From an uncultured Pseudomonadales bacterium (GTDB taxonomy: Bacteria; Patescibacteriota; Microgenomatia; UBA1400; PJMF01): 64,000 bases of DNA. Below, piece after piece: positions 4,766 to 62,352 of this stretch. The notes below the pieces were generated by a model, which did not search any database, had not been told where the DNA came from, and saw nothing but the letters and a program-made list of their open reading frames with translations. The translations under genes were made by a program, and so were the position numbers. The stretch spans positions 57,718-121,717 of the forward strand of contig CAYOQI010000004.1 of NCBI GenBank assembly GCA_964406075.1, read 5' to 3'. Numbering within the stretch: the first letter of the stretch is position 1; each line of letters begins with the position of its first letter.

Positions 4766-4771
4766 CTCCGC

Positions 4772-5560: not shown

Positions 5561-5587
5561 TTGAGATAAACACGCTAGAATAAACTC

Positions 5588-12564: not shown

Positions 12565-12576
12565 TTGATTTTAAAT

Positions 12577-17435: not shown

Positions 17436-18788
17436 GTGCTAAAGTACCAAAATCTTGCTTTTTTTTCTTACATTGGAAAATATTCTAAAAAATGGGACTA
17501 TGTCTCATTCATTCTGCTTGCAACTTGCCTGTTTCTAGCTCCTAGTAACCTTTTTCTCAAGTTGCTTCCAAACACCGGCTACGTAAACAATCTGCAAATC
17601 GATTATTTGATCCCAAAACTGCATCTCTCTTTCCTTTTCCTCTTACTTTTTGTAATCACAAGACTACCAGTTATACTATTTAAATTTAACAAATCTTCTC
17701 AAGTATTTAAAAAAAATAAGTATTGGCTATTAGGACTGACGACACTTTTCATTCACCAATGCTTTGCCGTCTTCCCTATGGTTGCATTGTGGACCTTTAT
17801 TAGCCTGGTCATTTTTCTGTTATTTTATCGAACTGCTACTCTTTTTTTGGATACACTTTCTGACGCAAAAAAACAGCTCTTTATCTGGGTGCTGTACATT
17901 ACTCTGTTCTTTCAAGCAGGACTCGGAACATTTCAGTTTGTAACCCAACGATCACTTGGAGGATTTTTATTCTTAGGAGAAACAACATTACGCAACCAAC
18001 CGTATTTAGCCCGAGGAGATTTTTACTTCATTGATTCAATTGTAGGAACTAGTTTTGGGCAACGAGTACTCCCTTACGGCACATTACCTCATCCCAATGT
18101 CTTGGCAGGATTTTTGGCTGTAGGAATGGTTGTGCTTTTTTATCGATTAACAATAAATAACTGGCTCAAAAGTTTGTTGATGCTCCCACTACTGGTGACG
18201 TTATTCTTAACACTCTCTATCTCAGCTTGGATGACACTCTTACTCGGTTTGCTATCTCTATATTTCAAAAAAACGGCTCTTTTTCAGAGCAAATCTATCT
18301 GGTTCGCTATTTTAGGAGTCTTTTTTCTGATTCCAGTACTTCTTGGAATTTCTCAGCCAAAGGCTGATCAGCCTTTGGCTGAGAATTTATTTCTGAGGTC
18401 TTGGTCATCTAATACTTCAATCACTCGTCGAGTTATTTTAAATGAAGTTGCTCTTAAAGAACTCGCTTTCCAACCAGTATTTGGAGTGGGATTTAATCAC
18501 TTCACAGTCTTTGTAGAAAGATTCCAACCATCTTCAGAAGTCGTCGCTTTTGTCCAACCAGCGCATCACGTGGGACTCTTGATGTTGGCAGAACTTGGAA
18601 TTCTTGGTACAGGATTAATCTTGAGGTTAATGAAAAAGATAATGAAGCTGGATCGCCAATCAGTCTTGTTTCTGGCTATTTTGTTCTTACCCATTGCTTC
18701 GCTTGATCACTATCTCTTCACCTTAATTCAAGGGTGGTGGCTGGTAGTAATTGCTTGTTTATTTCTCAGTTCTGAGAAGAAAACTTAA
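17436..18788 (+). CDS. O-antigen ligase / Wzy_C-like polytopic membrane protein. The start is uncertain: the ORF track uses GTG at 17436, and there is no nearby in-frame ATG.
   Basis: ~10-12 TM helices with a periplasmic loop region, typical of the O-antigen ligase family. Resembles the N-terminal half of the protein at 60143-62296. Confidence 0.5.
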   Translation: MLKYQNLAFFSYIGKYSKKWDYVSFILLATCLFLAPSNLFLKLLPNTGYVNNLQIDYLIPKLHLSFLFLLLFVITRLPVILFKFNKSSQVFKKNKYWLLGLTTLFIHQCFAVFPMVALWTFISLVIFLLFYRTATLFLDTLSDAKKQLFIWVLYITLFFQAGLGTFQFVTQRSLGGFLFLGETTLRNQPYLARGDFYFIDSIVGTSFGQRVLPYGTLPHPNVLAGFLAVGMVVLFYRLTINNWLKSLLMLPLLVTLFLTLSISAWMTLLLGLLSLYFKKTALFQSKSIWFAILGVFFLIPVLLGISQPKADQPLAENLFLRSWSSNTSITRRVILNEVALKELAFQPVFGVGFNHFTVFVERFQPSSEVVAFVQPAHHVGLLMLAELGILGTGLILRLMKKIMKLDRQSVLFLAILFLPIASLDHYLFTLIQGWWLVVIACLFLSSEKKT

Positions 18789-34902: not shown

Positions 34903-35838
<936 letters not shown>

Positions 35839-48700: not shown

Positions 48701-51700
48701 CCGATGGTCTGTTGATCAGAGCAACAACAGATGGTTCATTAGTAGATGCTATTGATGCGTCAGATGCAGAAATTACCAATGCCTTAAATATTGGGGCAAA
48801 CACAATCTTAGGAACAACTGGGGTTATCGATTTCACTAACTTTGATGTTGCAGCTACAGGTGCGCTCTCACTCTCTACCGCCGGAAATACCTCAGCCTCC
48901 TTCACCAGAACATCTGCTGGTCAATGGATGGCATTCAACGATGGCACCGATACTTGGGGTATTTACAACACCGCTGGTAGTCCTGAAGCATCGTTGACCG
49001 CAAATACTGGAGCCCTCGCAATGGATACAACCAATGGAACTCTCTATGTCAAAACTGATGATGGCGATAACACAGGGTGGGTAAACCTCGCTTCCGGTGC
49101 TTCTTCACCTTGGACTGATTCAGGGACGACTTCCTACTTAACCGATACTACAGATGAAGTAGTGATTGGTGGAGCTTCCCCACTTTCCAGTGCCAAATTT
49201 TCAATCGATGGAGATGCGGATCAAACTCAACTACTTGTCCAAGGCAATGCAACTCAAACCACAGACCTCGCAATCTTTGAGAACTCAGCGGGAGCAGATC
49301 AATTCAACTTCAGTAATACTGGAAACTTGATTGCAGCTGGAGACATTACTGCCACTGGTGGAACATTCAACGGTGCATCTGGAGAAAGTATTGACCTCGG
49401 AGTCGCAAGCTCAGATGTCCTCACCTTCACGACTGGAGCCTCAACTGAACTACTCCTTTCCACAACTAACTTAACAGCTGGAACAGCTGAAGGAAACTCA
49501 CTTGGATCTGCAACAGTAGAATGGGAACAACTCTTCCTTGGTGATAACAATGGAATTTCCTTTGGTCTCGATCAAGATTGGTCATTTGGTTATGATGAAG
49601 CTACAGATGATCGACTTGAATTAATCACAGCAGGAACGTCTGGAATGTTAATCCAATCCGCAACGGCTACTGGCAACGGATTAGCACTTACTTTTGATTC
49701 ACTCTCAACCGGTGAAGGACTCTACTTGTCTTCTACTTCAACAGCATTAACATCAGGTGGACATCTTGGTCTCTTCGAGTGGAATCCTGGAAGTGCCAGT
49801 TCGACCACCGCAGATCTGTTTAGTATCAATATTGGAAGTAACGCCACTGTGCTGGGAGATATCTTTAATGTTCAAGATAACGGCTCTGATCTTTTCTCCG
49901 TTGGAGAAGCTCAAATTACCTCTGCTCTTCCCCACTCATTTACCGCAGCCGGCGATGTATCAGTGGCCTACGATCTCCAATTTACCAATCAAACTGCTAG
50001 TTATTTGAAAACATACGGCCCACTTCAGATCGAAGCTGGTGAATCGTTTGAATCAAATAACTTAACGATAAAAACATATAACTCAGGTGACGTCGTCATT
50101 GATCTACCAGCCACCGGCCAAATGATCGTACAAGGTGCGTTCTCAATTGGAGATCAGCAAACACTTCCTGCCGGAACCACACCTTCCGTAGCCGGTGGTT
50201 CACACTACATTGGAAACGCGAATGGATTGATCACCAACTTCACCAGTGGAACTGCAGGTCAGATCCTAGTACTTGAGTTCGATGGAACTTCGACTGACCT
50301 CGACTGTAGCACTGCCGGACCGATTCGTTGTGGAAGTACAGATATCACTACCCAACAAGCAGCCGGTGACATCATTACCTTCATTTATGACGGAACAAAC
50401 TGGAACATGATCGAGTATGTAGCACTGGACGCAGACTCTACAGCTGGAGCTGACCTTGCCGAGTACTACCCCGCTTCTGAACACTTAGAGCCAGGTGACA
50501 TCGTCAGTATTGATTCAACTCAGCCAGTGATGGTGGAAAAATCTCACGAGTCTCATCGTCAACGAATAATGGGTATCGTATCAAGTGATCCAGGATTATT
50601 ACTTGGTGAAGAAGCGGATAATTCTTACCCCATCGCCTTGGCAGGGCGTGTGCATGTAAAAATGTCAGAATCATCTGAAGCTATTCAACCCGGCGACTTA
50701 GTTGGAGTTTCTCAGGAAACCGGAAAAGCCAAAAAAGTAAACTCTGGATATACAGTTGGCCGTGCTCTTGAATCATGGGATCCAAACTCTGGCGATCGAG
50801 ATGTGGTGGTATTTGTGAACTTATCATATATTCCCGTAGATTTAGCTTTAAATAATGATGGTCAAGTCAGCTCAAGCTACTCACTTATTACGACGGATTC
50901 TCTTGAGTACGCGATTCGCGATCTGAACAATGGACAGGATATTCAACAAACCTTAGTCTTGGCCGAATCATTGATTGGACGACTGGAAACCGGAAGTATA
51001 GTTACTCGAGAATTACAAGCTCAAAGTATCGAAACTGAAGACTTCCTCACGAATAACGCCACAGTATCTGGACAACTCAATGCCAACTCTGCAGAAATTA
51101 ACTCATTGAGATTTGAAACCGCCACAGTGGCGGGTCAACTTTTCTTATCAGATGGACGAAGTGTCGGCTCATTACTGGATGAAAATGATGCCTACTTAGC
51201 TTCCCTCTCAGCTCAGACCCAACAACTCGCACAATCATTTAGTGAGCAAACTGTCCCAGGCACATCCACAGCCTTTGATGAATTCCTCGCTCAACTGACA
51301 GGTACAGAAGACGCTTCTCTCTCAGCTGCCTTAGCAGCAATTCAGAATCAAGAAGATATTGAACTCGATGCAGAAAGCATGGTCCTGGCACCAGACGCAG
51401 TCTTTGTCAAAGAATACTTGAATGTCACCGGCTTCACTCAATTAACTACGGCCAGCATTTCTCAATCACTTACTGTGGGAGATGGTTTACTCTTAACTCA
51501 AGATACGATCGCCACAGCAGAGGAAACACTCTATATCCAACCAACTGCCGGATCACTGAACTTACTCGCCGGTTTGATGACACTCACTCCAGATGGAAAC
51601 GTCACGATTAACGGTGATCTGACTGTTACTGGAATCGCTTCCATTACTGATGGAGTGAAAACTAGTCAGCTCTCTCCAAATGACTTTACGCAAGATTTGA

Positions 51701-52173
51701 CAGTCAAACTTGCATCAGAATCAGCCTCAGTCTTGGGCACAACTGATAGCTCAGAGTTCCAGATTTTGAACGCCAGTAACTCAGCAGTGGCCAGTATCGA
51801 TGCATCTGGATCCGCCAAGTTCTCTAGCATTTCAACTGAAGGCTTAGTCTTGAAACAACCTCAGTCAGAGGCATCATCCTCTGCTCAACGACAAGCTGAA
51901 ATTGCTCGCAAACAAACAGCGGGACAATTAACTCTTGAGGCTGGTGAAGTCACAATGGAAATTGAGAATGATAATGTTGAAGACGACAGCTTGATTTATC
52001 TCACTGCAACTTCAGATACTCAAAACCAAGTCATGTATGTTGGAGAGAAAGAAACCTGTGCATTTGCTGGCCCAACCTGTCAAACCAGCTTCACCGTAAA
52101 AATTAATCAACCGATTGCTACAGACATTAAGTTCAACTTCTGGATTGTAAATGTCTCAAAACAACAGCCGTAA
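36772..52173 (+). CDS. Giant (5133 aa) membrane-tethered surface protein: an N-terminal MerR/excisionase-type HTH, a single TM helix, a very long Thr/Gly/Asp/Ser/Asn-rich repetitive extracellular region, and a distinct C-terminal domain.
   Basis: The 15.4-kb frame runs uninterrupted. HTH: IHEAAKFLKVSTKTLRRWEDRHILLPARTSGGHRRYDLNEIKAF. TM: WVSVSIVLAFFFISAAAFSIQGFF. The module ...TINGVDINAGTVSDVVNLTINSGGDLTIGSIGLNDVGSDNITSGASLVGVFDEFTNS..VQDVLDD.DAAIG recurs at least 6 times. The module LQLGSNGQDGQFILYNELG.TDYTNTINPSGSQSQNITYTLPPDDGG..NYVLT.DG.GVLQWESV recurs 3 times. Confidence 0.85.
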   Translation: MIPSDLPPLVSIHEAAKFLKVSTKTLRRWEDRHILLPARTSGGHRRYDLNEIKAFKKQKYSSGSVVHQTVLPLATVKPLESKVVDQTDILQVSKPLIIKPIDHFPLKTPKVTAYKPFPETITKVKKTFEFPSFQVRNNIPPQVEIPTEKITDFPIPTTPPSWVSVSIVLAFFFISAAAFSIQGFFKPLVAKHPVLSEIAYSLEKRLAINVFPKKEVMIVQANDSKVLGEHSSLDFLKFNINVESSFREFANFLSDVNVEGNATVSGILSVNSGSLQTTSETAQVFENASTLSIAANTGTTTVNNSLNVGGNLTVIGLINDIAGTLNLSGNTLTSTGDLVIDPGGGGVSIGDATPGIIDMTDGDFFVSGDVEIDGILYAPTANISGTASIGTVLVNSDSINDFTGTGLTVSDGALQTTIGTSVSSSEIENDTILEEDLKVSNDAVNGYALTYDNSTGGFTWTDIASSQVWIDGGSVYYQATTTDDVVIGGTSSLGKLSVDGDSDEIQLVVQGNGTQTSNIFVVEDSSGTDLFVVNNTGSITIASGQDLTIGSIGLNDVGTDNVTSGASLIGVFDEFTNSSATTLQDVLDDFDAAIGGGASKWAQDTGFVYLASTTDDIVVGGDTIANGSLYFDESAGSLYLGTNEALNGSLTLYSSGAGITDPTITADATGNANITTSATALVNILAGNLKVGNGAPTQTLNGEDAYVEGTLEVDGILYAGSATTALTVASGLIDADAIALTPTTEGLSGISSGSGLAVYSDTLSLLQGCGDGQVLKWNETNDSWECANDTGASFAVVNIENNDVAVGSNVDSIDFSTDFLVTASPSNEANVAIADDILNFTEFSDALTLDAATTITNSLAGNLTIDLTSTGDFVIADGGVAFFTFTDGGALTQAGSGQITLTGNVDATNGLDITGASLTVGGANATITTGGALTLASTITAATDETINGVDINAGTVSDVVNLTINSGGDLTIGSIGLNDVGSDNITSGASLVGVFDEFTNSSATTVQDVLDDLDAAIGAGASKWTDSGTVTYLTDTTDSITIGSSTELGKLAVDGDADEVQLLVQGNGTQTNALAIFEDSTGADQFSISNTGNVTLAGDLTISGGNITSATTFDSTATVTGTLTANGTLDANGIFTLGDNGETGAIDTSDWDISATGVLTGVSGITTDGGYTQSGATGNTFSGNVDATSGLDVTGASLTVGGANATITTGGALTLASTITANTDETVNGVDINAGTVSDVVNLTINSGGDLTIGSIGLNDIGSDNITSGASLVGVFDEFTNSDGLNVQDVLDDFDAAIGAGSSKWTDSGTVTYLTSTTDDLAVGGSTVLASMFGIDESAGNFYFGYDNSVSPTFNFEASDGDAGEFGFNTNDTFFFSNARVGVGTTNPSRLLHVSDSSGSPAIRVTGSASGSPFIEFEQSGNVRGVFGYDNTTSTLQLAYGANFSTTFLSLNSSGSMGLGTSAPDAALEINHATGDSLRLTYNDSNGSATSYTDFSLASDGDLTIDSAGGAINLGANDDLNITASTDLIFGGSTSLGESTGAADSGAFLTGIFDEFDNSASSTVQDVIDDIDAAIGNRTYTADNYVTDGQTLTASINALDIALASVSGGAYTGWSIDVDDDGADPIASGATLNVDAGSNVSLTYTAGTNTLLIAATDTNTTYTAGNDLDLTGTVFSLETTLDFVDTINLAGTGTLNGLDAVDATGENTIEALIFDTDAESITGVWTVADSTNFRIGTGGDLTFAHDGSNSTITSTTGDLLIDNTNATGSTIFDLGTDTSATDFLIRNDSGTQLLSLNGAGALQLGSNGQDGQFILYNELGVTDYTNTINPSGSQSQNITYTLPPDDGGADNYVLTTDGNGVLQWESVTGAGGGSGDLTDIIAGNYIDVQNAGGPSPTVDFDPTELEGVTWGASSGASEPFTWTYDVTNSGTDPSITFADNAITLTAATLTASGDLTIQGGDATLGMAGTDGSLTFYNELGATDRSVIFNVSGSQSEDIVYTLPPDNGAADNYVLTTDGSGVLQWESVSGAGGGTGDVTDIVAGNYIDVQNAGGPSPTVDFDPTELESVTWGAQTGASFTWTFNASSGTDTSIAFADGSISPTLAATGLFNVLTGNLKVGNGTPGLSLDGEDAYIEGTFEVDGASQFDGALTTNGTLTANGQFTLGDNGDTGAINTSDWDISTTGSLTGISGIANDGSYTQTGSSANAFTGVTTFNTDVDFTFADTENIAITNTVTGTNGLDLISAIITNQTSSGTQRGIVISNANDAANASTESLIFLDNAETTASTLTDAILITSSGADGGIVDAIDVSAGNITNALNVGGNNIIGTTAVINFDNFDIDGSGNLVTAGTLTAATNETINGVDINAGTVSDVVNLTINSGGDLTIGSIGLNDVGSDNITSGASLVGMFDEFDNSASTTVQDVIDDIDAAIGNRTYTADNYVTDGQSLTASIDALDVALAAVSGGAYTGWDLDGDSGTAETIANGNTVNILGGTNGIDTVVSATDTLTINLDTTEIGTSTFGSGSGFTWTFDAGATDPTLAFASNAITIGGAATLNFGGTLDLGTNTLSDGNFNGNWAFNSGNLSGIGTIGASGAITAATDETINGVDINAGTVSDVVNLTINSGGDLTIGSIGLNDIGSDNITSGASLVGVFDEFTNSDGLNVQDVLDDFDAAIGAGSSKWTDSGTVTYLTSTTDDLAVGGSTVLASMFGIDESAGNFYFGYDNSVSPTFNFEASDGDAGEFGFNTSDSFFFSNALVGIGTASPSEQLEVGGNIELTAAVPRLAFDNTNGDNDWYIQASATGFQFRNSSDNVNYLLINQTGLVSIGGDDSPDYLLELYDATATPTFALSDDDVTHGLTTLAQTDVFSHLTSLSTTAGGAELTTISDTDAQALSIRGVIGSTDPTDTTPAVKLVGAKSNGTTGMADLGAAETVFQVANNDDASALTILGNGNVGIGDTTPAALLTVGTSDALQIDASGNVVTTGTVTAATNETINGVDISAGTVSDVVNLTINSGGDLTIGSIGLNDVGSDNITSGASLVGVFDEFTNSSATTVQDVLDDLDAAIGAGASKWTDGGAITYLTATTDDLAVGASNTLTAPFSVDVSANLVRIGTGSTANAQLDMYASDGDTGSLIYNTSDQFNFTGGDVLIGQALTVTGTTTANGAFDANGQFDLGDGGDAGTISATTLDIDATGALQINSSGGAIGIGNDAVAQAINIGTGAAARTITMGNNTGASALQLTSGTGDITLTSTDDILFTPTDDMLATFAAGSAFTIDAATTDTTVTGGVLALDVDAGNAAVIGIDLDFSQSSGATTGTDAIGQNIAVSANDADGDVFGLSIRSNATANAGVGSYEALIRLINAEDTASAVTDAILIDSTSGVDGDIIDAIDVSDANITNALNVGANNIIGTSAVINFSSFDVDASGNTIIGGTLDVTGISTLVGNLNANGGLDVDNAFVVADGGVLTTSQTANFDGTADFDGAADFSAGVTNSAGEFLVSGGNLQLNDNINLTVGTGDDLTIVHNGTNTLLTSVTGDLIFDNTLVTGSTIFDLGTDTSATDFLIRNNSGTQLLSMNGAGAFQLGSNGQDGQFILYNELGGTDYTNTINPSGSQSQNITYTLPPDDGGLNYVLTSDGSGVLTWQSVGGIGAGGDLTDIVAGNYIDVQNATGPSPTIDFDPTELETVTWGAQAGSSFAWTFNASSGTDPVMTFADNAITLTAATTTLSGDLAINGGNVTTATTFDSTLTATGTLTANGALDANGQFDLGDGGDAGTISATTLDIDATGALQINSSGGAIGIGNDAVAQAINIGTGAAARTITVGNNTGASALQLTSGTGDINLNSADDIFLSPSDDLTAFITAVGQFTIDAATIDSQNTLGAFRLDIDSSTSGTIGFLTNFRAIDDDAADILYANRTDVTIQDDTTASDTVYGNYISLIQNDTTPATTYGLAVVAEDAGTSPVSTGILIENLQATDIDLTDGLLIRATTDGSLVDAIDASDAEITNALNIGANTILGTTGVIDFTNFDVAATGALSLSTAGNTSASFTRTSAGQWMAFNDGTDTWGIYNTAGSPEASLTANTGALAMDTTNGTLYVKTDDGDNTGWVNLASGASSPWTDSGTTSYLTDTTDEVVIGGASPLSSAKFSIDGDADQTQLLVQGNATQTTDLAIFENSAGADQFNFSNTGNLIAAGDITATGGTFNGASGESIDLGVASSDVLTFTTGASTELLLSTTNLTAGTAEGNSLGSATVEWEQLFLGDNNGISFGLDQDWSFGYDEATDDRLELITAGTSGMLIQSATATGNGLALTFDSLSTGEGLYLSSTSTALTSGGHLGLFEWNPGSASSTTADLFSINIGSNATVLGDIFNVQDNGSDLFSVGEAQITSALPHSFTAAGDVSVAYDLQFTNQTASYLKTYGPLQIEAGESFESNNLTIKTYNSGDVVIDLPATGQMIVQGAFSIGDQQTLPAGTTPSVAGGSHYIGNANGLITNFTSGTAGQILVLEFDGTSTDLDCSTAGPIRCGSTDITTQQAAGDIITFIYDGTNWNMIEYVALDADSTAGADLAEYYPASEHLEPGDIVSIDSTQPVMVEKSHESHRQRIMGIVSSDPGLLLGEEADNSYPIALAGRVHVKMSESSEAIQPGDLVGVSQETGKAKKVNSGYTVGRALESWDPNSGDRDVVVFVNLSYIPVDLALNNDGQVSSSYSLITTDSLEYAIRDLNNGQDIQQTLVLAESLIGRLETGSIVTRELQAQSIETEDFLTNNATVSGQLNANSAEINSLRFETATVAGQLFLSDGRSVGSLLDENDAYLASLSAQTQQLAQSFSEQTVPGTSTAFDEFLAQLTGTEDASLSAALAAIQNQEDIELDAESMVLAPDAVFVKEYLNVTGFTQLTTASISQSLTVGDGLLLTQDTIATAEETLYIQPTAGSLNLLAGLMTLTPDGNVTINGDLTVTGIASITDGVKTSQLSPNDFTQDLTVKLASESASVLGTTDSSEFQILNASNSAVASIDASGSAKFSSISTEGLVLKQPQSEASSSAQRQAEIARKQTAGQLTLEAGEVTMEIENDNVEDDSLIYLTATSDTQNQVMYVGEKETCAFAGPTCQTSFTVKINQPIATDIKFNFWIVNVSKQQP
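40462..40862 (+). repeat. 401-bp exact intragenic direct repeat, copy 1 (identical to 44590-44990).
   Basis: Nucleotide identity over the whole span, read directly. Both copies lie inside the giant CDS. Confidence 0.8.
44590..44990 (+). repeat. 401-bp exact intragenic direct repeat, copy 2.
   Basis: Identical to 40462-40862, at an offset of 4128 nt. Confidence 0.8.
46276..46442 (+). repeat. 167-bp exact intragenic direct repeat, copy 1 (identical to 48049-48215).
   Basis: Read directly. It encodes ...NGQFDLGDGGDAGTISATTLDIDATGALQINSSGGAIGIGNDAVAQAINIGTGAA in both copies. Confidence 0.8.
48049..48215 (+). repeat. 167-bp exact intragenic direct repeat, copy 2.
   Basis: Identical to 46276-46442, at an offset of 1773 nt. 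Confidence 0.8.
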
Positions 52174-52447: not shown

Positions 52448-55400
52448 ATGTTCTCATTTCGTCGTCGCCCACTATCTTCCGTATCTAGAAAACGCTCACC
52501 GAAGGTAGTTGTTCTCTTATTGTTGTTAACACTGCTTTTACTCCCAATCGTCTACAGCCTCATTACACGTCCCAATCAAGGAACAGCTGCACCACTCAAC
52601 GCGACTGAAGATTCTACTTCCATCACAATTACATCCCCAGGAAAATATCGAGCAGTGATCCAAAAAGGCGATACCACAGATTACATTCTTTTTTATGATC
52701 TAGCTGAAGATGCCGGTAACCCTGATCCGACACATGAGTTTAAGGGCCCGTGTGTTTTGGAAACAAACACGTATTGCCTGCGAGATGATAGTAACCGAAT
52801 GACAACACTGATTGAGGTGACAGACACCGTTGTGAAAGTTCGGGTCATGGGCAGATTCAATAACGAAGCCAGTACTGATTATCTTGATGATGATACGCCA
52901 CTCTATTTCCCTGAAGTGATCGAAAACTATGCGTTCACTCGTGATGGAGTAAGTGTCATGAACCGTACGGACTTCGCTACGGGAACTGGTGTCACTTTTG
53001 ATGCAGATTCTGGGCACAACGGATATGACTGGCTCGGTGTGTACTCAGATGTCACCGATGGTGCATACGATGACACCGCCAATAATAACTATGGTGATGG
53101 TGCGACTGAGGCTCAAATATCCGCCGATGGAGAGTTTTCTAATACCAATAGTTACTTTCACATGCCTGGAACTGGGAGCTCTACCTACCAAGACGCCTTT
53201 GTCGGTATACATCGAGATGGTTGGTATAGCGATTTAAACTCCAGTGGTGTCCATGAGTGGAATTGGGATGAGGCTGAATCAGGTACGCAGGATTTAATCA
53301 CAGCACAAGAGCAAAACTACAACTCCAGCAGACGTCATGAGGCCAAATGGTATTTCCTCCTGAAAAGTGAATCAGATCTTGATACTGAAGCCGAACGAGA
53401 AGCTTTGAACAATGAAATGATCAATGCCGATATACTCTCCTACACCGTAGGTGAAACGTCCTACGAGATGCCGGTGACTGCAACTGCAATCAATTTTGAT
53501 GCGGATACTGATTACGTCAACGTGCCTGACAACTCAGCCTATGATTTTGGTGATACAGCAGACTACTCTGTTGAAGCGTGGATGATGAGAAATGGAAACC
53601 CTATTTCAGGTGATAACCCCATTGTCTCAAAACGGCTCTGTTGTGGTGCTTCCGGCTGGGAATTCCAGATTCGACTTTCAAGCGCACGAATGCGTTTGCA
53701 AATGACTGATGGAACAGATACGTATGATCTTGAAGGCAGTACGGTTCTTAGTGACCAAACTTGGTACCACGTTGCAGCCGTGTTTGATCAAGACAACGCC
53801 AGCAATAGCATTATCTATATAAACGGTGTTGCAGAAACGATGACTCGGACAGGGACTATTGGAAATTTGGGCAGTATGGCAAGTACCGCTGGACTCGGTT
53901 TTGGTGTTGGTGAGCCTGGTATTGGGAACTATAACAGTTTTTCCGGCCGAATAGCTGAAGTACGAATCTGGGATGATGTGCGAACAGCAGCTGAAATTCG
54001 CGAAAACATGTTTCGACAAATTGACCCCGCATCAGCAAACCTAGTGGGATACTGGAAACTGGATGAAGGGACCGGAACTGCAGTACATGATTCCAGTGCA
54101 ACCGGTGCGAATGGAACAATTGTTGGAGGTGCCACTTGGGACTCAGTCAATGAACGTAAGGCCGATCACTTCAATGAATTTGAATTTGCCCACACACTTC
54201 AGTCAACAGCCCAAAATGCGCAGTACGATATTGATGCTGGAGCATCAAATGTCTCAACAACAGCCAATGGTGCTATTTCCGATAACGCGACCACAGTCAC
54301 AGTTACCTCCACGACAGGCTTTGCCTCTTCGGGAATTGCCTACATTGATGGAGATAAGTTTAGCTACACTGGAACCACTGCCACGACATTTACCGGTGTT
54401 CCCTCTTCTGGTGAACACAGCGTAATTGCTCATGTCACAGGAAGTGTGGTCGCTCAGTTCACGCGAAGTAACACCAACTTTAAGGTTGGTGGCTACCAAT
54501 CCACTGAGAAACCTGCGCAAATTACCAAAGAAGGTATCTCGCAAAAAGAAGGGGTCGATTTCTCAGCTTCTGTAAAGCCAGTAACGGATGGCTACTTTGC
54601 CCAAGACTTAAGTTTTTATGCAGACTTTGCAAGTACGACAGTTGACGTTGGTTCAAACTTGACCAATAGCGGATGTACCCTGACACAAGGTGGCAATGAC
54701 TACACTTTAGGATTTATCACCGTATGTGATGGTGGCTCCGATGACATGACATTTACCTCAACAGGCAATATCGACTATGCCAAAGGAGCCCTTGAGTTTT
54801 CGATCGCGGCATTCAGTACCAGTGCTGACAGTACCGAACGTACATACTTTCGCATAACCGATGGCACCGATGAGTTTCGATTTCGCAAAACATCAGGCAA
54901 TACTTTAGAGTTTTTAATTGATGAAGGCGCTTCCACCTATACAGAATCTATCTCAAGTGCAAACTACAGTTGGGGGTTTTTGGACACTGTTCACATTCGA
55001 CTGGAATGGGATGACAGTGCCTCTACCACAGAAGATGAAATGAAAATTTACATCAATGGAAGATTACCGACCTCCACAGATGCGAGTGGTTTTACCGGTG
55101 CAAATGTGTCTCCTGGTACCACCTTCCGTTTAGGAAATAGTGCAGACTCTGGAGGTACGCACTGTAACTGCTTGATCGATGAATTCAAAATCTATGACTT
55201 CAACGGCAGTGGTGATCAAGTTGGACTGGCCAAGGTTGGAGCCGGTGGTGGAGGTGGTGATTATTTCTATAACCCAAATAATAATCTGACGCTTTCTTTT
55301 GCTCCGGTGGACGCTGGTAATCGAGGTGAGTATCTCTACTTAGGCGCTGATGCCAAAGTCAATGGATATAACTTTGATCTTGCTACCAATGGTGTTGGAA

Positions 55401-58400
55401 GTTCCTTAAATCTTGATTGGGAATACTGGAATGGTGTCGCTTGGACAAGCTTAGAATCCATTGTTGGCTTTACAGATACGACAAGTAACTTAACCCAAAG
55501 TGGCACCGTGTATTGGACTGCTCCACCGACCAACTGGAGACCATATGCGATGAACAGCAAAAATGAGTTCTACTATATTCGAGCTTCCTTAAATGCAGCA
55601 TCTGGTACGTACACCACAAGTCCTGTCGAAAATAGAATCACCACAACAACTCTCTACATTCGAAGCGACACGACACTTAATCTTGAAGATCAAACGTTTG
55701 TCATTCCCACCCAATTCCAACCATCTGTTTTCTGGAAAATGGATGAAGGTCAAGGAACAGCAATCAATGATAGTACTGGGAATAAAAACGACGGAACACG
55801 CCTCAATGCGGTGTGGCAAACGGAAGATATGTGTGTTTCAGGAAAGTGTCTCTATTTTGATGGGAGTGGCAGTCCAAGAGACTATCTGTATAGATTAAAT
55901 GATGACAGTTTCAACTTTACAGCCAGCGAAAGTTTCTCAATAAGTATTTGGATAAAACGTGAACCAATATCTACAGACCCGAATGTGATTCTTGCAAAAC
56001 ATAACTCAAGCGGTGGTGGATATAAAATTCGAATGGAAAATGATGGTGATATCAGTTGTGGAATTGATGATGACAGTACGTACACCCCTGATGCTGAGGC
56101 AATTAGTACGCTCGCCACCTATGATGATAATCAATGGCACCACATCGAGTGTGTCAAAGATGGTACTTCAAGTTTGTCGCTCTATATCGATGGAATACTT
56201 ATTAATACCAACTCCTCTATCTCTGGAGTAGGAAGTCTTGTAAACACGCAACCGTTTTACCTTGGAAATGGCGGTGACGGTTTATCAGATGCATTTAAAG
56301 GCTTCATGGATGAATTCAAAATGTATCCCTATGCTCGAACTGCAGATGAAGTAAAAGCCGACGCTATTGCAGGCGCTGGAAATCGTGGCTCCTCCGCTGT
56401 ACTCGGAGCACAGGACACCGCATTTCTAAATGACGGCTTAGCCGGTTATTGGTCACTCGATGAAGGAACCGCTAACTCTTGTAGTGGAGGAACAAACGAT
56501 AGCTGTGATAAATCTGGCAACAATAATGATGGTGCTTGGCAGGATAATGCCACAAGTACGCGTGGTAAGTTTAGTCGTGGCACAATTTATGATGGAACCA
56601 ATGACAATGTCACCATAACTGATCCAACGTCTGGGACATTAGATTTTGGGACAGGTGATTTTACCGTGTCAACCTGGGTGAACTTCAGTGCTATCGCGAA
56701 TGGAAGTACCCTGCTTGGGAAAAACTTCACTGGTTCGGGAGCCGGGTATGGTATGCGTATACAAACCACTTCCCCGACGATATGGGTGGGAGATGGTGCT
56801 ACTACGGCTGAGCTTGCCCACACGGCAGTACTTTCAAACTCTGCCTGGTATCATGTTGTTGGTGTCAGGAAAAACGGCACATTATATATATACGTGAATG
56901 GTGTACAAGGCTCATCCACTGCATCTTTTACTGGGAATGTGAGTACCACAGGAAATCTGTATTTGGGGGCCAGAGGAACGGGAGCAACAGCAAATATGGC
57001 TGGAAGTTTAGATGAGGTGAGAATATATAATCGGGCCCTTGCTCCTGCAGAAATAACTACTTTATATAACTGGGCACCCGGACCGGTAGGATATTGGAAG
57101 CTGGATGAAAATACGGGTATCAGTGCATATGATTCATCAGGTAATGCTAGCACTGGCACTCTCACAAATAGTCCAACCTGGACACCAGGAAAATTTGGTT
57201 CTGGAGTCAATTTAGGAGGAAATAGTTCCAATCATTATGTGAGCATTGCCGATAATGATCTCTACTCTCCTTCACTCTTTGCAGGAGCTACTATCCAGGC
57301 CTGGTTCAATCAAGACACCGCAACTGCAGCCCGAGACTGGATTGTGGCGAAGGGAAACACAAGTAACTTCGAGTGGGGTCTCGCCGTAAGCAATGGTGTT
57401 CTCTATTGTGAGATCTGGGATTCATCTGGTAGTAGTCAAGCCCAAGTCGTTGCAGGCGTGGTATCCACTGGAGCATGGCACTTCGCCTCTTGCACCATGG
57501 ATAATACCAATGGTGTTTATCTCTATCTTGATGGAGTGTTGCAGGGATCTTCCCCAGGACTTACTGGTGGAATGAGTAATACTACCTCTGCTGTACAAAT
57601 TGGTAATCGTGCCGATGGTGGAGACAATAATTTTGACGGAACTATCGATGAAGTAAAAATCTACAACTATGTTCGTACTCCCGGCCAGATGCTTGAAGAC
57701 ATGAATGGTACTCACCCGGTTGGAGGCTCCCCGGTGGGTTCTCAAATACTTAATTGGAAATTTGATGAGGGCAATGGAACCACAGCAAATAACGAAATAA
57801 CTGGTGGAACAAACGGCACCCTTACCAGTATGGCCACTGCCCCATCGACTTCTTCTTCAGGGTGGACTGCCTCAGGAAAATTTAATAAAGCCTTAGTTTT
57901 TGATGGGACAGACGACAAAGTCGTCATTGACACTGCAAGCGACGCAAATGTGGACTTCAATGCAAGTGAACAGTTTTCTTTGTCGGCCTGGGTGTACTCC
58001 ACCACTGTTCCCACTACTGCAACCGACGAGGATTTAATTATAGGAAAATGGGACGAAACAAGTTCTCAACGTGCATACAGAGTGTTCCTCGAAAATGATG
58101 ATACTGATTCAACAGGTCACATCCGAGTTGAAGTCATGGATGAATCCACCGGAGGAAATGAAATTCTCTCAGCAGTTACGAGTAATGACACTATCTCACA
58201 AAACACTTGGTATCACGTCACCATGACATTTAATGGAACGATCACTGGAGCTGCAAATAGTCTGAAGGTATATCTAGATGGCAAGCAACTTGGTACCAAC
58301 GCAGCGAATGCAAGTTTCGTAGGTATTGATGACGTCACCTCTGATTTCACGGTAGGTGATTATGATGCCACAGACAGTGACGGAGATCTTGATGGCTTTA

Positions 58401-59968
58401 CTGGTCGAATAGATACTGTGCAAGTGTATGGTGCAGAGCTTACAGCAGATCAAGTAAAAATTGTCATGAATGCGAACTCCGGTGTCAACTTCTCTACGGG
58501 TAGAGTTGAAACTGATCAGTCTATTGATGGAACACCATCAAACATAGCTGGATATTGGAATCTGAACGAGAACACAGGGACAACAGTGAATGATACATCT
58601 GGTAATGCAAACGCATTAACGATGAGTGGTGTGTCTGCTAGCTCTTGGGTACCTGCCAAATACGGATCAGGCTTGTACTTCGATGGAGCTGATGATTATC
58701 TCTCTATTGCTGATGATGCTGATTTTGATTTTGCTGCAGTTGATAGTTTTACTATTTCTGCCTGGGCAAAAAACTCTGGCTCACTTGCTTCAAGTCAACA
58801 TATTTTCGTCAAAGGTGACACCACTGATGGGGGCTGGAAACTCTACTTAAATACTGCCGGAAATTACTGTGTCCATTTTGCAGACAACATTAATAATGCC
58901 CCGACTGACTCAGCGTGTTCTTCATCAGGAGGATATGACTACAATGACAATCAATGGCATCACATTACTGCAGTGAAAGTAGCTAACTCTGAACTGCATC
59001 TCTATATTGATGGTGTGCTGGTAGCCTCTGATACAGCATTTTCATACTCCGGAACACTTGCAAACACTGGATCCTTATTGGTGGGCATAGGACAAAGTAC
59101 TACTACAGAAGAATTCACAGGTATCTTGGATGAATTAAAAATTTCGAGAACACCACTTACTGCCTCCCAAGTAGCTTTTGAATACAATCGTGGCCGTTCA
59201 CTAGCCTGGTGGAAATTTGATGACTGTACTGGAACTACTGCATACAATGCTGCCCAAAACGGTAACGGCGATGCGATTGGAAGTAATGGCACCATTACCA
59301 TAGGTGCAACCGGTTCCAACACATCCGCAGGTTCTTGTAATGTCGTGAACACCGCCACAGCTTGGTACAACGGGTTGGTCGGTAAATTTAATAACTCCAT
59401 TGATTTCGATGGCACTGATGATTATGTTTCTGTCGCAGATACAGAGATACTTCGACCAGAGGCAGGTAGCTGGTCCGTATCCTTGTGGGCAAACCCTGCA
59501 AATATCAATCAAAATTCTCCACTTATTACCAAGCGCCTAAACAGTGGGAATTTTGAACAATGGTCACTCTATATCTGTGGAAACATTGGATGTAGTACCG
59601 ATGGACAGCAAGTGCGCTTTGCTTTTGTTGAGGCCGATGGAACTACTGATCGCAAAGCACTCAGCACTCTAGACGTTGTTGATGGCAACTGGCATCATTA
59701 CGTGGGCATAGCCAGTAAAGACGATGACTCCATTATTTTATACAGGGACACAATAGAGCTAACTTCAACTTCTACAACAAATGGTTCCTGGCCTACTGTC
59801 AATAATACTGATCCTGTCCGCATCGCAAACGACAATGGAAGTGTTTACTATAATGGTCAAATTGATGATGTGCAGGTTTTTAACTATACTTTGTCTCAGG
59901 AACAAGTTAAAAAATTGTATAATGAAGGCTCTAGTGCTCGGTTTGGACCAGAAAGTGGAACTCCTTAA
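52448..59968 (+). CDS. Giant (2506 aa) secreted or membrane-anchored protein built from at least 7 LamG / concanavalin A-like lectin (Laminin_G_3-type) domains.
   Basis: N-terminal signal anchor VVVLLLLLTLLLLPIVYSL. Repeated hallmarks appear about every 250 aa: YWKLDEGTGTAVHDSSATGANGT, FWKMDEGQGTAINDSTGNKNDGT, YWKLDENTGISAYDSSGNASTGT, NWKFDEGNGTTANN, YWNLNENTGTTVNDTSGNANA, WWKFDDCTGTTAYN, each followed by ...LDEVRIYNRALAPAEI / IDEVKIYNYVRTPGQM / LDELKISRTPLTASQV. Confidence 0.85.
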   Translation: MFSFRRRPLSSVSRKRSPKVVVLLLLLTLLLLPIVYSLITRPNQGTAAPLNATEDSTSITITSPGKYRAVIQKGDTTDYILFYDLAEDAGNPDPTHEFKGPCVLETNTYCLRDDSNRMTTLIEVTDTVVKVRVMGRFNNEASTDYLDDDTPLYFPEVIENYAFTRDGVSVMNRTDFATGTGVTFDADSGHNGYDWLGVYSDVTDGAYDDTANNNYGDGATEAQISADGEFSNTNSYFHMPGTGSSTYQDAFVGIHRDGWYSDLNSSGVHEWNWDEAESGTQDLITAQEQNYNSSRRHEAKWYFLLKSESDLDTEAEREALNNEMINADILSYTVGETSYEMPVTATAINFDADTDYVNVPDNSAYDFGDTADYSVEAWMMRNGNPISGDNPIVSKRLCCGASGWEFQIRLSSARMRLQMTDGTDTYDLEGSTVLSDQTWYHVAAVFDQDNASNSIIYINGVAETMTRTGTIGNLGSMASTAGLGFGVGEPGIGNYNSFSGRIAEVRIWDDVRTAAEIRENMFRQIDPASANLVGYWKLDEGTGTAVHDSSATGANGTIVGGATWDSVNERKADHFNEFEFAHTLQSTAQNAQYDIDAGASNVSTTANGAISDNATTVTVTSTTGFASSGIAYIDGDKFSYTGTTATTFTGVPSSGEHSVIAHVTGSVVAQFTRSNTNFKVGGYQSTEKPAQITKEGISQKEGVDFSASVKPVTDGYFAQDLSFYADFASTTVDVGSNLTNSGCTLTQGGNDYTLGFITVCDGGSDDMTFTSTGNIDYAKGALEFSIAAFSTSADSTERTYFRITDGTDEFRFRKTSGNTLEFLIDEGASTYTESISSANYSWGFLDTVHIRLEWDDSASTTEDEMKIYINGRLPTSTDASGFTGANVSPGTTFRLGNSADSGGTHCNCLIDEFKIYDFNGSGDQVGLAKVGAGGGGGDYFYNPNNNLTLSFAPVDAGNRGEYLYLGADAKVNGYNFDLATNGVGSSLNLDWEYWNGVAWTSLESIVGFTDTTSNLTQSGTVYWTAPPTNWRPYAMNSKNEFYYIRASLNAASGTYTTSPVENRITTTTLYIRSDTTLNLEDQTFVIPTQFQPSVFWKMDEGQGTAINDSTGNKNDGTRLNAVWQTEDMCVSGKCLYFDGSGSPRDYLYRLNDDSFNFTASESFSISIWIKREPISTDPNVILAKHNSSGGGYKIRMENDGDISCGIDDDSTYTPDAEAISTLATYDDNQWHHIECVKDGTSSLSLYIDGILINTNSSISGVGSLVNTQPFYLGNGGDGLSDAFKGFMDEFKMYPYARTADEVKADAIAGAGNRGSSAVLGAQDTAFLNDGLAGYWSLDEGTANSCSGGTNDSCDKSGNNNDGAWQDNATSTRGKFSRGTIYDGTNDNVTITDPTSGTLDFGTGDFTVSTWVNFSAIANGSTLLGKNFTGSGAGYGMRIQTTSPTIWVGDGATTAELAHTAVLSNSAWYHVVGVRKNGTLYIYVNGVQGSSTASFTGNVSTTGNLYLGARGTGATANMAGSLDEVRIYNRALAPAEITTLYNWAPGPVGYWKLDENTGISAYDSSGNASTGTLTNSPTWTPGKFGSGVNLGGNSSNHYVSIADNDLYSPSLFAGATIQAWFNQDTATAARDWIVAKGNTSNFEWGLAVSNGVLYCEIWDSSGSSQAQVVAGVVSTGAWHFASCTMDNTNGVYLYLDGVLQGSSPGLTGGMSNTTSAVQIGNRADGGDNNFDGTIDEVKIYNYVRTPGQMLEDMNGTHPVGGSPVGSQILNWKFDEGNGTTANNEITGGTNGTLTSMATAPSTSSSGWTASGKFNKALVFDGTDDKVVIDTASDANVDFNASEQFSLSAWVYSTTVPTTATDEDLIIGKWDETSSQRAYRVFLENDDTDSTGHIRVEVMDESTGGNEILSAVTSNDTISQNTWYHVTMTFNGTITGAANSLKVYLDGKQLGTNAANASFVGIDDVTSDFTVGDYDATDSDGDLDGFTGRIDTVQVYGAELTADQVKIVMNANSGVNFSTGRVETDQSIDGTPSNIAGYWNLNENTGTTVNDTSGNANALTMSGVSASSWVPAKYGSGLYFDGADDYLSIADDADFDFAAVDSFTISAWAKNSGSLASSQHIFVKGDTTDGGWKLYLNTAGNYCVHFADNINNAPTDSACSSSGGYDYNDNQWHHITAVKVANSELHLYIDGVLVASDTAFSYSGTLANTGSLLVGIGQSTTTEEFTGILDELKISRTPLTASQVAFEYNRGRSLAWWKFDDCTGTTAYNAAQNGNGDAIGSNGTITIGATGSNTSAGSCNVVNTATAWYNGLVGKFNNSIDFDGTDDYVSVADTEILRPEAGSWSVSLWANPANINQNSPLITKRLNSGNFEQWSLYICGNIGCSTDGQQVRFAFVEADGTTDRKALSTLDVVDGNWHHYVGIASKDDDSIILYRDTIELTSTSTTNGSWPTVNNTDPVRIANDNGSVYYNGQIDDVQVFNYTLSQEQVKKLYNEGSSARFGPESGTP

Positions 59969-60142
59969 GCTTCTCTTCTTACGATCATTCAAGAAAGAAA
60001 CTCATTCAGTAAAACTTCAGTTTCCCTCTTACATTTTTCTCTCTATAAACAAGCTTTTTTTTATGAATTTTCTACTTGTATCTCATTGCAAAATACCGGT
60101 ACAATGACTACTTAATATAGTGAAGGTAACTTAATACGCACC

Positions 60143-62296
60143 ATGGCACAACCGTCCACTCGCCCACAATCACTTGATCTCATCATTCCCAAGCTCGTTG
60201 AATATATGCTGTATGGAGCAGTGATTTTAACTCCATTATTCTTTTTACCGTTTCTGCAAAATATTTTTGATACATCAAAGTATGCCCTGCTCTTGATAGT
60301 CACATTGATTTCACTTGGACTTTGGACGGTAAATACGTTGAGACATAAAGTATTACGATTTACTTTTCATCCTTTTACCTTTCCATTAATTCTTTTATCG
60401 TTCAGTATTTTAGTTTCTTCAGTATTGTCACCGGTGTATTTTCTTGAAGATTTTGCGGGAATTTTTGGACTCATCTTTTTCTTAAACTTACTTATTCTGT
60501 TTGGTTCAAGTTTAGTAAAAGTCAAACAAAGTAAAACATTTATTGATATGGCAAGTATTGGGGCCATTTTATTGAGCATCGTTTCTCTTCTCCAGCTCGC
60601 TGGAGTTGGACCAACAGTTGCATTAAATTCTTTACTGACCTTACAGTTTCCAAATACTTTTGCATTCTCTCCCGCTGGATCTCCATTGATTGGTTTATCT
60701 GCATTAGTAACCATCTTGGTACCAATGGTTGTGATGTTGGTTACTAATAAAGCATGGAAAGAAAAAATTCCGACAATGGTAGCTACTGCTATCGTCGCGA
60801 TCGGAGTACTTCTTCATGTCGGAGTAATGGTTGCAAAGCCTGAATTTCGACCTAACCTGCTTCCTTTATCAGCAAACTGGTTAATCTCCGTAGAAATTTT
60901 GAAGAACCTCCCCAGAGCCCTTTTTGGAGTTGGTCCTCAAAATTTTATGGATGCGTATGCTCAATTTCGACCAGTGAGCTTAAACAGTAATGACACATGG
61001 CAACTACTCTATCAATCAGGATCAAACACTCCATTCTTTATTTGGGTCAGTGTCGGGACTGTGGGATTGATTGCTTGGATCTTACTTTTTATTCAAAGTT
61101 TACTATTGCTCAAATCATCTCCAATATCCGCTCGCCCAGTTGGAATCATGGTCGTCACTGCTTTTATTATCGAGTTATTTATTCCGTTTAATATTGTCCT
61201 TGTCGCTCTACAAGCACTGGGTATGTTGTTCTGGATCGCGACACTCAGAGCTGAGCATCATCCCAAAAGTTCAGATATTGTCGTTAGCTTAAATGCCTTA
61301 AAAGTTACTCGCCCTGAAGACTACCCAACAGAAAAGAGAATGGGATCTTTGACATACATCACCACATTTTTTGTTCTGGTTGTAATCGCAGTCAGTACGT
61401 ACGGTCTCTTTAGAGTTATGGCCGGAGAGTTTTTCTTCTTCCAATCACTCCAAGCTGCTCAAGCTAGCGATGTCAAAAAACTGTATGAGATTCAACAAAA
61501 AGCCATTCAATACAATCCATATCGAGATATTTATCGCAGAACCTATGCCCAAACCAACTTTGCAGTGGCATTAAATTTGGCTCAAAAAGAAGGTATTACC
61601 GAAGAAGAAAAAGCCACACTTTCTAAATTACTTCAGCAAGCAATTCGAGAGGCTCGTATTGCCGCAAGTTTGAACCCTGCTCGCTCAGTCAATTGGAGAG
61701 TTTTAGGTGATATTTATCGAGGATTAATTGGTTCAACCAAGAATGCCGAACAGTGGTCAGTCGCATCATATGTCCAAGCCGTTCAAACTCATCCCAATGA
61801 CCCAACGTTGCGTGTTGATCTAGGTGGAATTTTCTTGAGAACCAAAAACCCTGATCAAGCAGCTCAATTGTTCCAACAAGCAGCACAGCTCAAACCAGAT
61901 TACGCCAATGCCTACTACAACTGGGCCCAAGCATTAATTTTACTCAATCGACCAGATACAGCTGTCTTAGCGTATGAGAAAGTTCTCACCTTACTTAAAC
62001 CTGATTCAGCCGATTACGTCAAAACTCAAAAGGAGTTAGTGGATTTGAGAGAAAAAGCCAAGGCCGCTGCAGCTGCTCAACCAAAACCACCTGCTACTCA
62101 AACCGCAACTGGATCAGCTACGACACCCACACCTCAACCAACACCAAGTAATACTCAACCTGAGGAAGCTGCCTTACCTGAGTCAGTCAAGCCATCACCA
62201 GGTTTGTTAGATCAAGAACCTGAAAATGTCCAGCTCGATCCTAATCAAGCCAGTCAATCAGCCACTCCCCAACCCAATCCAACTGCTGCTCCGTAA
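60143..62296 (+). CDS. Wzy_C / O-antigen ligase family polytopic membrane protein with a C-terminal TPR repeat domain and a Pro/Thr/Gln-rich tail; candidate O-oligosaccharyltransferase or polymerase.
   Basis: ~12 TM helices over the first ~410 aa. TPR-like helical repeats follow (YNPYRDIYRRTYAQTNFAVALNLAQ..., PDYANAYYNWAQALILLNRPDTAVLAYEKVL). The C-terminal low-complexity tail is PKPPATQTATGSATTPTPQPTPSNTQPEE. Confidence 0.7.
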   Translation: MAQPSTRPQSLDLIIPKLVEYMLYGAVILTPLFFLPFLQNIFDTSKYALLLIVTLISLGLWTVNTLRHKVLRFTFHPFTFPLILLSFSILVSSVLSPVYFLEDFAGIFGLIFFLNLLILFGSSLVKVKQSKTFIDMASIGAILLSIVSLLQLAGVGPTVALNSLLTLQFPNTFAFSPAGSPLIGLSALVTILVPMVVMLVTNKAWKEKIPTMVATAIVAIGVLLHVGVMVAKPEFRPNLLPLSANWLISVEILKNLPRALFGVGPQNFMDAYAQFRPVSLNSNDTWQLLYQSGSNTPFFIWVSVGTVGLIAWILLFIQSLLLLKSSPISARPVGIMVVTAFIIELFIPFNIVLVALQALGMLFWIATLRAEHHPKSSDIVVSLNALKVTRPEDYPTEKRMGSLTYITTFFVLVVIAVSTYGLFRVMAGEFFFFQSLQAAQASDVKKLYEIQQKAIQYNPYRDIYRRTYAQTNFAVALNLAQKEGITEEEKATLSKLLQQAIREARIAASLNPARSVNWRVLGDIYRGLIGSTKNAEQWSVASYVQAVQTHPNDPTLRVDLGGIFLRTKNPDQAAQLFQQAAQLKPDYANAYYNWAQALILLNRPDTAVLAYEKVLTLLKPDSADYVKTQKELVDLREKAKAAAAAQPKPPATQTATGSATTPTPQPTPSNTQPEEAALPESVKPSPGLLDQEPENVQLDPNQASQSATPQPNPTAAP

Positions 62297-62327
62297 AGAA
62301 AGAATAAATTAAAAATTGAAACAAAAA

Positions 62328-62352
62328 AGCTGACTAAAAGTCAGCTTTTTTT
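62328..62352 (+). terminator. Rho-independent terminator, bidirectional by symmetry (A-run / hairpin / T-run).
   Basis: AAAAA-AGCTGAC-TAAAA-GTCAGCT-TTTTTTT, a 7-bp stem. Confidence 0.65.

Follow-up and report, generated by a model that had tools for sequence, protein, structure and literature searches.

The window analyzed here, a 64,000-nucleotide stretch of contig CAYOQI010000004.1, is core chromosome of a low-GC (about 39%) genome of the Patescibacteria (candidate phyla radiation, CPR). Three large open reading frames (ORFs) follow one another on its plus strand, in the order described by an earlier reading made without database searches (the sequence-only reading): a giant protein of 5133 aa, a multi-LamG protein of 2506 aa, and a 717-aa membrane protein with tetratricopeptide repeats (TPR). 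We describe the third of these as a new variant of the Wzy_C/WaaL fold without the canonical His, one that carries a TPR domain and is coupled by conserved gene order to an undescribed family of membrane-tethered surface proteins. The genes and the parts of the 717-aa protein are as follows (TM, transmembrane; AF2, AlphaFold2).

36772..52173, plus strand: 5133-aa giant
52448..59968, plus strand: 2506-aa multi-LamG protein
60143..62296, plus strand: 717-aa protein with a divergent Wzy_C-like membrane domain, a TPR domain and a Pro/Thr/Gln-rich tail (ORF, Pfam TPR, AF2 model)
60143..61462, plus strand: membrane domain, aa 1-440, about 11 TM helices, remote Wzy_C/WaaL fold (hhalign, Foldseek)
60836..61027, plus strand: large extracytoplasmic loop of 64 aa (aa 232-295), the best-conserved stretch of the membrane domain
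61472..62077, plus strand: extracytoplasmic TPR domain, aa about 444-645 (Pfam TPR families, AF2 helices)
62078..62293, plus strand: disordered Pro/Thr/Gln-rich tail with a conserved short motif, P662, L678, P684 (pLDDT about 33)
62323..62351, no strand assigned: palindromic terminator-like hairpin between A and T runs, just past the stop codon of the 717-aa gene

The description of the 717-aa protein as a membrane protein with an external TPR domain held up. About 11 TM helices were predicted, Pfam TPR families were matched, and the full-length AF2 model was of good quality (pLDDT 83, pTM 0.81). Because the cytoplasmic loops hold 11 K/R residues and the short external loops hold 0, the positive-inside rule places the 64-aa loop and the TPR domain, in all likelihood, outside the cell. 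The TPR domain was unusually conserved in 168 relatives (W518, Y525, P551, P554, R557, G561, K584, N589, Y592, N593, and D624), and PEX5 and Tom70 were among the sequence matches of the protein. No terminator hairpin comparable to that at 62323-62351 was found between the three plus-strand genes; therefore, cotranscription of the three would fit.

Superfamily membership and external face of the 717-aa protein

The sequence-only reading had called the 717-aa protein a Wzy_C protein outright, a label that direct domain searches did not return. With the whole protein or its membrane domain, Pfam gave TPR only and no Wzy_C even at E ≤ 10, and the gathering threshold of the Wzy_C model (PF04932) was not reached. 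NCBIfam likewise gave TPR only and no O-antigen-ligase domain, and PDB sequence searches gave no membrane-protein match for the single sequence (TPR only) or for a profile of the membrane domain. The label was nevertheless supported by relatives and by profiles. The Pfam Wzy_C model was matched by 8 of 20 relatives (best E, 6.6e-8) and, in precomputed Pfam annotation, by 7 of 31. When the membrane-domain profile (A2) was aligned by hhalign with a canonical Wzy_C profile (A3, built from the ORF at 17436-18788 and 31 homologues), a probability of 96.7% and an E value of 3.9e-10 were obtained over 296 columns. Only the profile-profile comparison worked, as the family profile against single sequences (ORF 17436 and E. 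coli WaaL) gave no usable probability.

For fold comparison, the membrane domain was modeled alone (pLDDT 86, pTM 0.88), since TPR proteins swamped the Foldseek matches of the full-length model. Its top PDB match was WaaL (7tpg_B; E, 1e-3), followed by the GT-C enzyme AftB (E, 0.09). Because of the profile-profile homology, the Wzy_C-matching relatives, and the weak WaaL fold match, the 717-aa protein appears to be a real, deeply divergent member of the Wzy_C/WaaL-fold superfamily. It is filed there under no characterized subfamily, and a PglL/PilO type could not be separated from a WaaL/Wzy type for either of the Wzy_C proteins in the window.

In E. coli WaaL, R288 and H338 are among the residues shown to be essential. 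In the profile alignment, S294 of the 717-aa protein (nt 61022-61024) sits where the canonical catalytic His would be, and no position of the membrane domain has a His conserved at ≥80% in the 168 relatives. Within the large loop, W246, G262, G264, N281, and W286 were invariant or nearly so in the same relatives, and E/D251, K254, and R/K276 were conserved. On the external face as a whole, the conserved or invariant positions were P31, K46, W246, E/D251, K254, G262, G264, R/K276, N281, W286, R/K289, and G305; instead of the canonical Arg/His, four basic residues (K46, K254, R/K276, and R/K289) and one acidic residue (E/D251) are kept. Such a pattern would not be expected of a decayed pseudoenzyme, and the external face looks like a remodeled ligand-binding or active site. 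Catalysis by the protein is, on its sequence, doubtful. A check for a Wzy-type polymerase found the basic residues kept in the external loops and recognized no RX10G-type motif; the gene lies outside the Wzx/glycosyltransferase cluster of the window.

Chromosomal position and the upstream CTD family

The family of the 717-aa protein is large and uniform. At E ≤ 1e-30 it comprised about 1995 clusters (50% identity), almost all of 650-720 aa, which NCBI labels only "tetratricopeptide repeat protein," and one peptide pattern alone recovered the TPR gene in 278 GTDB species. Relatives of the genes studied here belonged to Microgenomates, WWE3, and Woese-, Ames-, Beckwith-, Levy-, Gottesman-, and Roizmanbacteria. 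The GTDB records that hold a Patescibacteria-type TPR gene with its neighborhood (L013-L017, L021, L024, L025, and many others) are often titled "uncultured Pseudomonadales" or "uncultured Gammaproteobacteria," and these titles look like mislabeled submissions.

For the analysis of synteny, ORFs were called and neighbors compared in 85 loci, of which 80 had been gathered via relatives sharing the motif KPDxANAYY, so that the sample is biased to that TPR motif. A common backbone was found on the opposite strand, with an MBL-fold protein, ComEC, ComEA, and LeuRS upstream of the TPR gene and a 23S-rRNA-IVP protein, Obg, a LysM-M23 peptidase, and Rho downstream. The window matches this backbone (MBL, ComEC, ComEA, and LeuRS upstream and Obg downstream), with the ATP synthase operon, iPGM, and the giant genes in between. 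The TPR gene is a core gene of Microgenomates/WWE3-type CPR bacteria at a fixed position.

What lies immediately upstream of the TPR gene varies from locus to locus, and surface-protein genes are frequent there. When only loci with ≥3 kb of flanking sequence were counted, an ORF of ≥900 aa was present within three genes on the upstream side in 24/62 and on the downstream side in 4/67. The most consistent occupants were genes whose products end in the same C-terminal domain (CTD) as the 5133-aa giant: on the same strand, they lie at positions -1 to -3 upstream of the TPR gene in 32/85 loci, and a single locus has one at +1 to +3 downstream. A gene for a helix-turn-helix (HTH) protein with a TM segment and no CTD stands at -1 in four further loci, and a type IV pilin-like gene on the same strand at -1 in 6-10 loci. 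Thus, the conserved upstream partner of the TPR gene is the CTD family, including the 5133-aa giant, and not the LamG protein. In the giant, the following parts were distinguished.

36802-36912, plus strand: MerR-type HTH, aa 11-47, cytoplasmic
37258-37314, plus strand: single TM helix, aa 163-181
50389..52173, plus strand: conserved C-terminal module of about 590 aa
51847-52170, plus strand: CTD, the last roughly 90 aa, ending FNFWIVN

By this layout, the giant is predicted to be a membrane-tethered DNA-binding domain carrying a huge ectodomain, with roughly 4950 aa outside the cell, of which about 4350 aa without a Pfam match precede the C-terminal module. With jackhmmer, this module was found at the C-terminus of 44 ORFs in related loci. 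A CTD profile built from 42 C-termini found 43 ORFs, and the domain stood at the extreme C-terminus in all 43; a single short seed had found nothing. The CTD, seen also in L009:9143-9769, L041:9169-9843, and others, is about 70-90 aa long, and its closing motif, FNWxI(I/V)N, stands just before the stop codon (alignment A5). It gave no Pfam model above threshold (the nearest was K1-lyase_C, 22 bits), and its profile returned one uninformative protein from a database of 5.8 billion proteins. The CTD and its membrane-tethered protein family are previously undescribed.

The CTD proteins range from 181 to 5133 aa, and relatives of 181-2940 aa follow the plan of the giant. In the 19 with complete N-termini, a single TM segment was found in 17, and a DNA-binding-type head on the cytoplasmic side in 11 to about 15; tandem Phage_int_SAM-like domains form this head in 9, and others have a MerR-type HTH. 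Weak similarity to the intramolecular-chaperone (IMC) domains of Peptidase_G2 and Peptidase_S74 and to K1-lyase_C in CTD-protein relatives or neighboring giants suggests that the large CTD proteins may be tailspike- or fiber-like. In other CPR genomes, giants with Peptidase_S74 (endosialidase-chaperone) lie close to the TPR gene or follow the ATP synthase operon (L003:5439-13831, minus strand, and L091:15003-17251), which suggests a possible general class of tailspike-like giant surface fibers in these CPR bacteria. In the window, a 308-aa ORF upstream of the giant (34903-35829, minus strand) holds a copy of region 30-203 of the C-terminal module; hydrophobic segments lie at either end of this ORF, and Pfam gave no match.

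The 2506-aa protein was correctly described as having at least 7 Laminin_G_3 domains. Eight stretches matched Laminin_G_3 (PF13385; Pfam E, 6.4e-159), and a profile of the protein against itself gave 8 strong repeats and 1 partial one. A 310-aa region without a family match separates the repeats from the signal-anchor.

52508-52564, plus strand: N-terminal signal-anchor, aa 21-39
53498-59926, plus strand: LamG repeats (8-9)

No C-terminal anchor and no LPXTG were found in this protein, and the CTD profile does not find it. Anchoring of the two giants by LPXTG and sortase was considered and rejected, as the C-terminal sorting signal is absent from both the 5133-aa and the 2506-aa proteins. Their description as Thr/Ser-rich applies modestly, with S+T at 23% (5133 aa) and 21% (2506 aa) and no 40-aa stretch reaching 50%. 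The GC content across both giant genes (window 38000-60000) is 0.43-0.46, against 0.35-0.41 elsewhere, and only the first 2 kb of the window are higher (0.47); the rise could reflect the Gly/Ala/Asp/Thr-rich composition of the giants or a foreign origin.

Other glycan and envelope genes in the window

A second Wzy_C gene, noted by the sequence-only reading, was confirmed by Pfam. Its neighborhoods are purely housekeeping and give no functional clue.

17436..18788, plus strand: canonical Wzy_C protein, 450 aa (Pfam Wzy_C, 37.5 bits against a gathering threshold of 31.7)

Throughout its family (A3), R332, H377, G350, and G352 are invariant, and R332 and H377 align to R288 and H338 of E. coli WaaL. 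Pfam found neither Wzy_C_2 nor PglL_A in this protein, and a PDB sequence search gave no membrane-protein match. Because the ligase signature R332/H377 is kept, this protein would be a more conventional candidate for a ligase or oligosaccharyltransferase (OTase) than the 717-aa protein. A TfpO-like reading, based on pilin-like genes 3.4 kb away, was dropped, as the synteny is not conserved.

The glycan cassette of the sequence-only reading was recovered in part: a DPMS/ArnC-like GT2 (glycosyltransferase family 2), a GT4, and a Wzx-like flippase were supported, whereas the label GT-C for its first ORF was not, since that protein is polytopic but gave no Pfam, PDB, or PMT similarity.

2657..7961, no strand assigned: glycan cassette (652-aa polytopic protein, GT2, GT4, Wzx-like flippase)
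2657-4615: 652-aa polytopic protein, about 12 TM helices and a soluble C-terminal domain
4772-5560: DPMS/ArnC-like GT2
5588-6715: GT4
6705-7961: Wzx-like flippase

The 652-aa gene lies directly upstream of the DPMS/ArnC-like GT2 gene (window 2657-5560). The pairing of a polytopic protein with such a GT2 is typical of polyprenyl-phosphate-sugar-dependent glycosylation outside the membrane; if the 652-aa protein is a GT-C, the pair would be an independent candidate for glycosylation of this kind.

The core genes of the window include those for ArgRS, LeuRS, ComEC/ComEA, F-ATPase, and iPGM; a sortase gene, pilin-like genes, and NDK are also present. An envelope/secretion cluster occupies 8041-14076.

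8041-8817: sortase
9304-11454: VirD4/TrwB-like coupling ATPase
11455-12564: VWA protein
12577-14076: three small ORFs, at least one with a type IV pilin N-methylation motif

A monoderm-type envelope would agree with the sortase gene and with the CPR lineage.

Possible functions and comparison with known systems

The sequence-only reading had proposed that the LamG protein and the 717-aa protein form a module for O-glycosylation of surface proteins, with the 717-aa protein as an OTase of the PglL/PilO type. That specific claim is weakened, because the 717-aa protein has neither the canonical catalytic residues nor the accessory domains, a LamG gene seldom adjoins the TPR gene, and the cassette is 52 kb off. 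The more general idea, that the outward TPR domain of a Wzy_C-type protein may engage surface proteins encoded by neighboring genes, gains support from the one-sided synteny and from the precedent of WsfB and WsaA-WsaB, which are compared below.

We tentatively favor, well short of confidence, a role for the 717-aa protein in transferring glycans to surface proteins by means of a rebuilt active site. This role is favored because of the homology and fold, the outward-facing loop and TPR domain, the conservation of the external loop, the one-sided synteny, the WsfB precedent, and the gene string of one locus (L007:2-10230). In that string, a CTD protein with Peptidase_G2 similarity, a TPR+CTD protein, a PMT/TMEM260-like GT-C, and a 930-aa protein are followed by the Wzy_C-like/TPR gene; it is the only locus with a recognizable protein glycosyltransferase family, a PMT/TMEM260-type mannosyltransferase homologue, in the gene string. 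In the mechanism we infer, the TPR domain would dock surface proteins during their exit from the membrane, with the products of the genes directly upstream as the prime candidates. These candidate acceptors, the 5133-aa giant among them, share one plan: a DNA-binding-type domain in the cytoplasm, a single TM helix, an extracellular region that varies, and the conserved CTD; in some genomes, a pilin-like or LamG protein takes their place. The membrane domain would bind a polyprenyl-diphosphate-linked glycan and transfer it to the docked protein, with K46, E/D251, K254, R/K276, N281, and R/K289 as a rebuilt active site replacing the canonical Arg/His pair.

Several observations weigh against glycosyl transfer to surface proteins. 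The fold match to 7TPG is weak (TM-score, 0.36-0.38; root mean square deviation, 12 Å). In the 168 relatives, column 294 holds S in 102, R in 25, and A in 10, so that His is not among the three commonest residues; for the canonical Arg (R288 of E. coli WaaL), the RR motif lies opposite a gap in the alignment, and no conserved Arg stands in the columns beside it. Neither Wzy_C_2 (PF11846) nor PglL_A (PF15864) was found in any of 20 family members at E ≤ 1. The cassette at 2657-7961 is the only one in the window, and glycosyltransferase genes beside the TPR gene were found neither in the window nor in 84/85 related loci, L007 being the exception. Co-occurrence across loci bore out the upstream link to surface-protein genes and not the LamG partner, as a LamG gene stands at -1 in only 5/85 loci (the window, L002 with a 67% identical relative, L022, L050, and L084). 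The TPR gene stays between LeuRS and Obg/LysM-M23/Rho even where the upstream surface-protein gene is lacking, so that the synteny could arise from a slot open to variable insertions, with no functional link between the genes. Polysaccharide export is another setting in which TPR domains act as scaffolds.

Such a scaffold is assumed if the 717-aa protein works on envelope glycopolymers, by Wzy-like polymerization or by ligation to a glycolipid or the wall (like pneumococcal TacL), with the upstream genes incidental. This is rather unlikely in our view. It would suit a core gene fixed beside LysM-M23, Obg, and Rho, the size and uniform length of the family, the conserved basic residues in the external loops, and the Wzx-like flippase and glycosyltransferases of the genome; for Wzy polymerases, no dependence on the ligase His is known. 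However, the excess of same-strand CTD genes upstream (32 loci against 1) is hard to obtain by chance insertion, glycan genes are adjacent only in L007 among the loci inspected, and the His-bearing Wzy_C gene at 17436-18788 is the better ligase candidate. The loss of both canonical catalytic residues could instead point to a noncatalytic assembly or anchoring factor, a pseudoenzyme membrane platform whose TPR domain binds the CTD of fiber-like proteins to fold, trimerize, retain, or release them. The CTD is found at the extreme C-terminus in 43/43 with the conserved end FNWxI(I/V)N, Peptidase_G2 and Peptidase_S74 IMC domains occur in neighboring giants, and the TPR domain is better conserved than ordinary repeats, including Lys/Asn/Asn/Arg positions that recall carboxylate-clamp TPRs such as PEX5 and Hop; the sequence matches to PEX5 and Tom70 also speak for it. 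Yet the external catalytic loop is still the best-conserved stretch of the membrane domain, many loci have a TPR gene and no nearby CTD gene, and the terminal motif would resemble a β-strand within a folded domain more than a free peptide. We consider an assembly factor of this kind unlikely.

The cytoplasmic heads allow a different explanation, in which the upstream HTH-TM proteins are membrane-tethered transcription factors controlling the TPR gene. MerR-type or tandem Phage_int_SAM-type heads in 11 to about 15 of 19 complete CTD proteins and the HTH-TM-only genes at -1 in four loci agree with it, but it leaves the conserved CTD and the giant extracellular regions unexplained and could hold alongside the other models; as the account of the pair, it is very improbable. 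In a further, speculative and unlikely reading, the 717-aa protein and the upstream CTD proteins would make up an undescribed, CPR-specific system for the maturation of surface proteins. Here, the TPR domain would recognize the CTD, the rebuilt WaaL-fold domain would glycosylate the protein or attach it covalently to an envelope glycolipid or polymer, and the cytoplasmic HTH might relay to the chromosome what state the ectodomain is in. If true, the system would be a functional analogue, on a GT-C_B scaffold, of the CTD-dependent attachment of type IX secretion or of sortase-type sorting.

The ultra-small CPR bacteria depend on contact with other cells, and almost nothing has been characterized of how they build their envelope and their giant surface proteins. 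Here, we define a large, uniform, and unannotated WaaL-fold family with a replaced active site, together with a partner family of 181-5133 aa with a new CTD and cytoplasmic DNA-binding-type heads and a fixed slot for variable surface-protein genes. If the pair does glycosylate or attach surface proteins, the chemistry of the Wzy_C/GT-C_B fold would be wider than thought, and a handle on the contact apparatus of episymbiotic bacteria would be gained. Should the membrane domain prove to be a pseudoenzyme, it would clearly illustrate how a glycosyltransferase fold can be turned into a platform for protein assembly.

Among known proteins, the canonical Wzy_C family of the same genome (17436-18788) is homologous to the 717-aa protein over 296 columns but has invariant R332 and H377, no TPR domain, and a length of about 420-460 aa. 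With WaaL (7TPG/7TPJ; E. coli), the 717-aa protein shares the superfamily, the large external loop, and a GxGxG..F motif followed by a TM helix with G..G; unlike WaaL, it has an extra TPR domain and no equivalents of R288 and H338, the TM-score is only 0.36-0.38, and a lipopolysaccharide acceptor would not be expected in a CPR cell that, by its sortase gene and lineage, is probably of monoderm type. PglL, PilO (TfpO), and PglS also belong to the Wzy_C superfamily, and some of them are encoded directly downstream of the substrate gene (pilA-tfpO), which may be compared with the pilin-like genes upstream of the TPR gene. The 717-aa protein differs from them in having no Wzy_C_2 or PglL_A, no NCBIfam match, and no equivalent of PglS H324. 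This His is regarded as the catalytic base of PglS, and H324A was used as the inactive control (PMC12800693).

The closest parallel in architecture is found in monoderm S-layer glycosylation. WsfB of Paenibacillus alvei, a monoderm, is a predicted tyrosine O-oligosaccharyltransferase of the S-layer with Wzy_C and a C-terminal TPR domain, and for WsaB of Geobacillus stearothermophilus the TPR is supplied by the adjacent protein WsaA (PMC2943079). WsfB and WsaB lie inside S-layer glycan clusters and are recognized by the Wzy_C model, whereas neither holds for the 717-aa protein, which also has no canonical His/Arg. By description, it is built like WsfB, with a Wzy_C-type membrane domain joined to a C-terminal TPR domain on the outside of a probably monoderm cell; with WsfB and WsaB-WsaA, it thus shares the type of envelope, the combination of a Wzy_C-type polytopic domain with TPR, and a large surface protein as the proposed target (PMC2943079).

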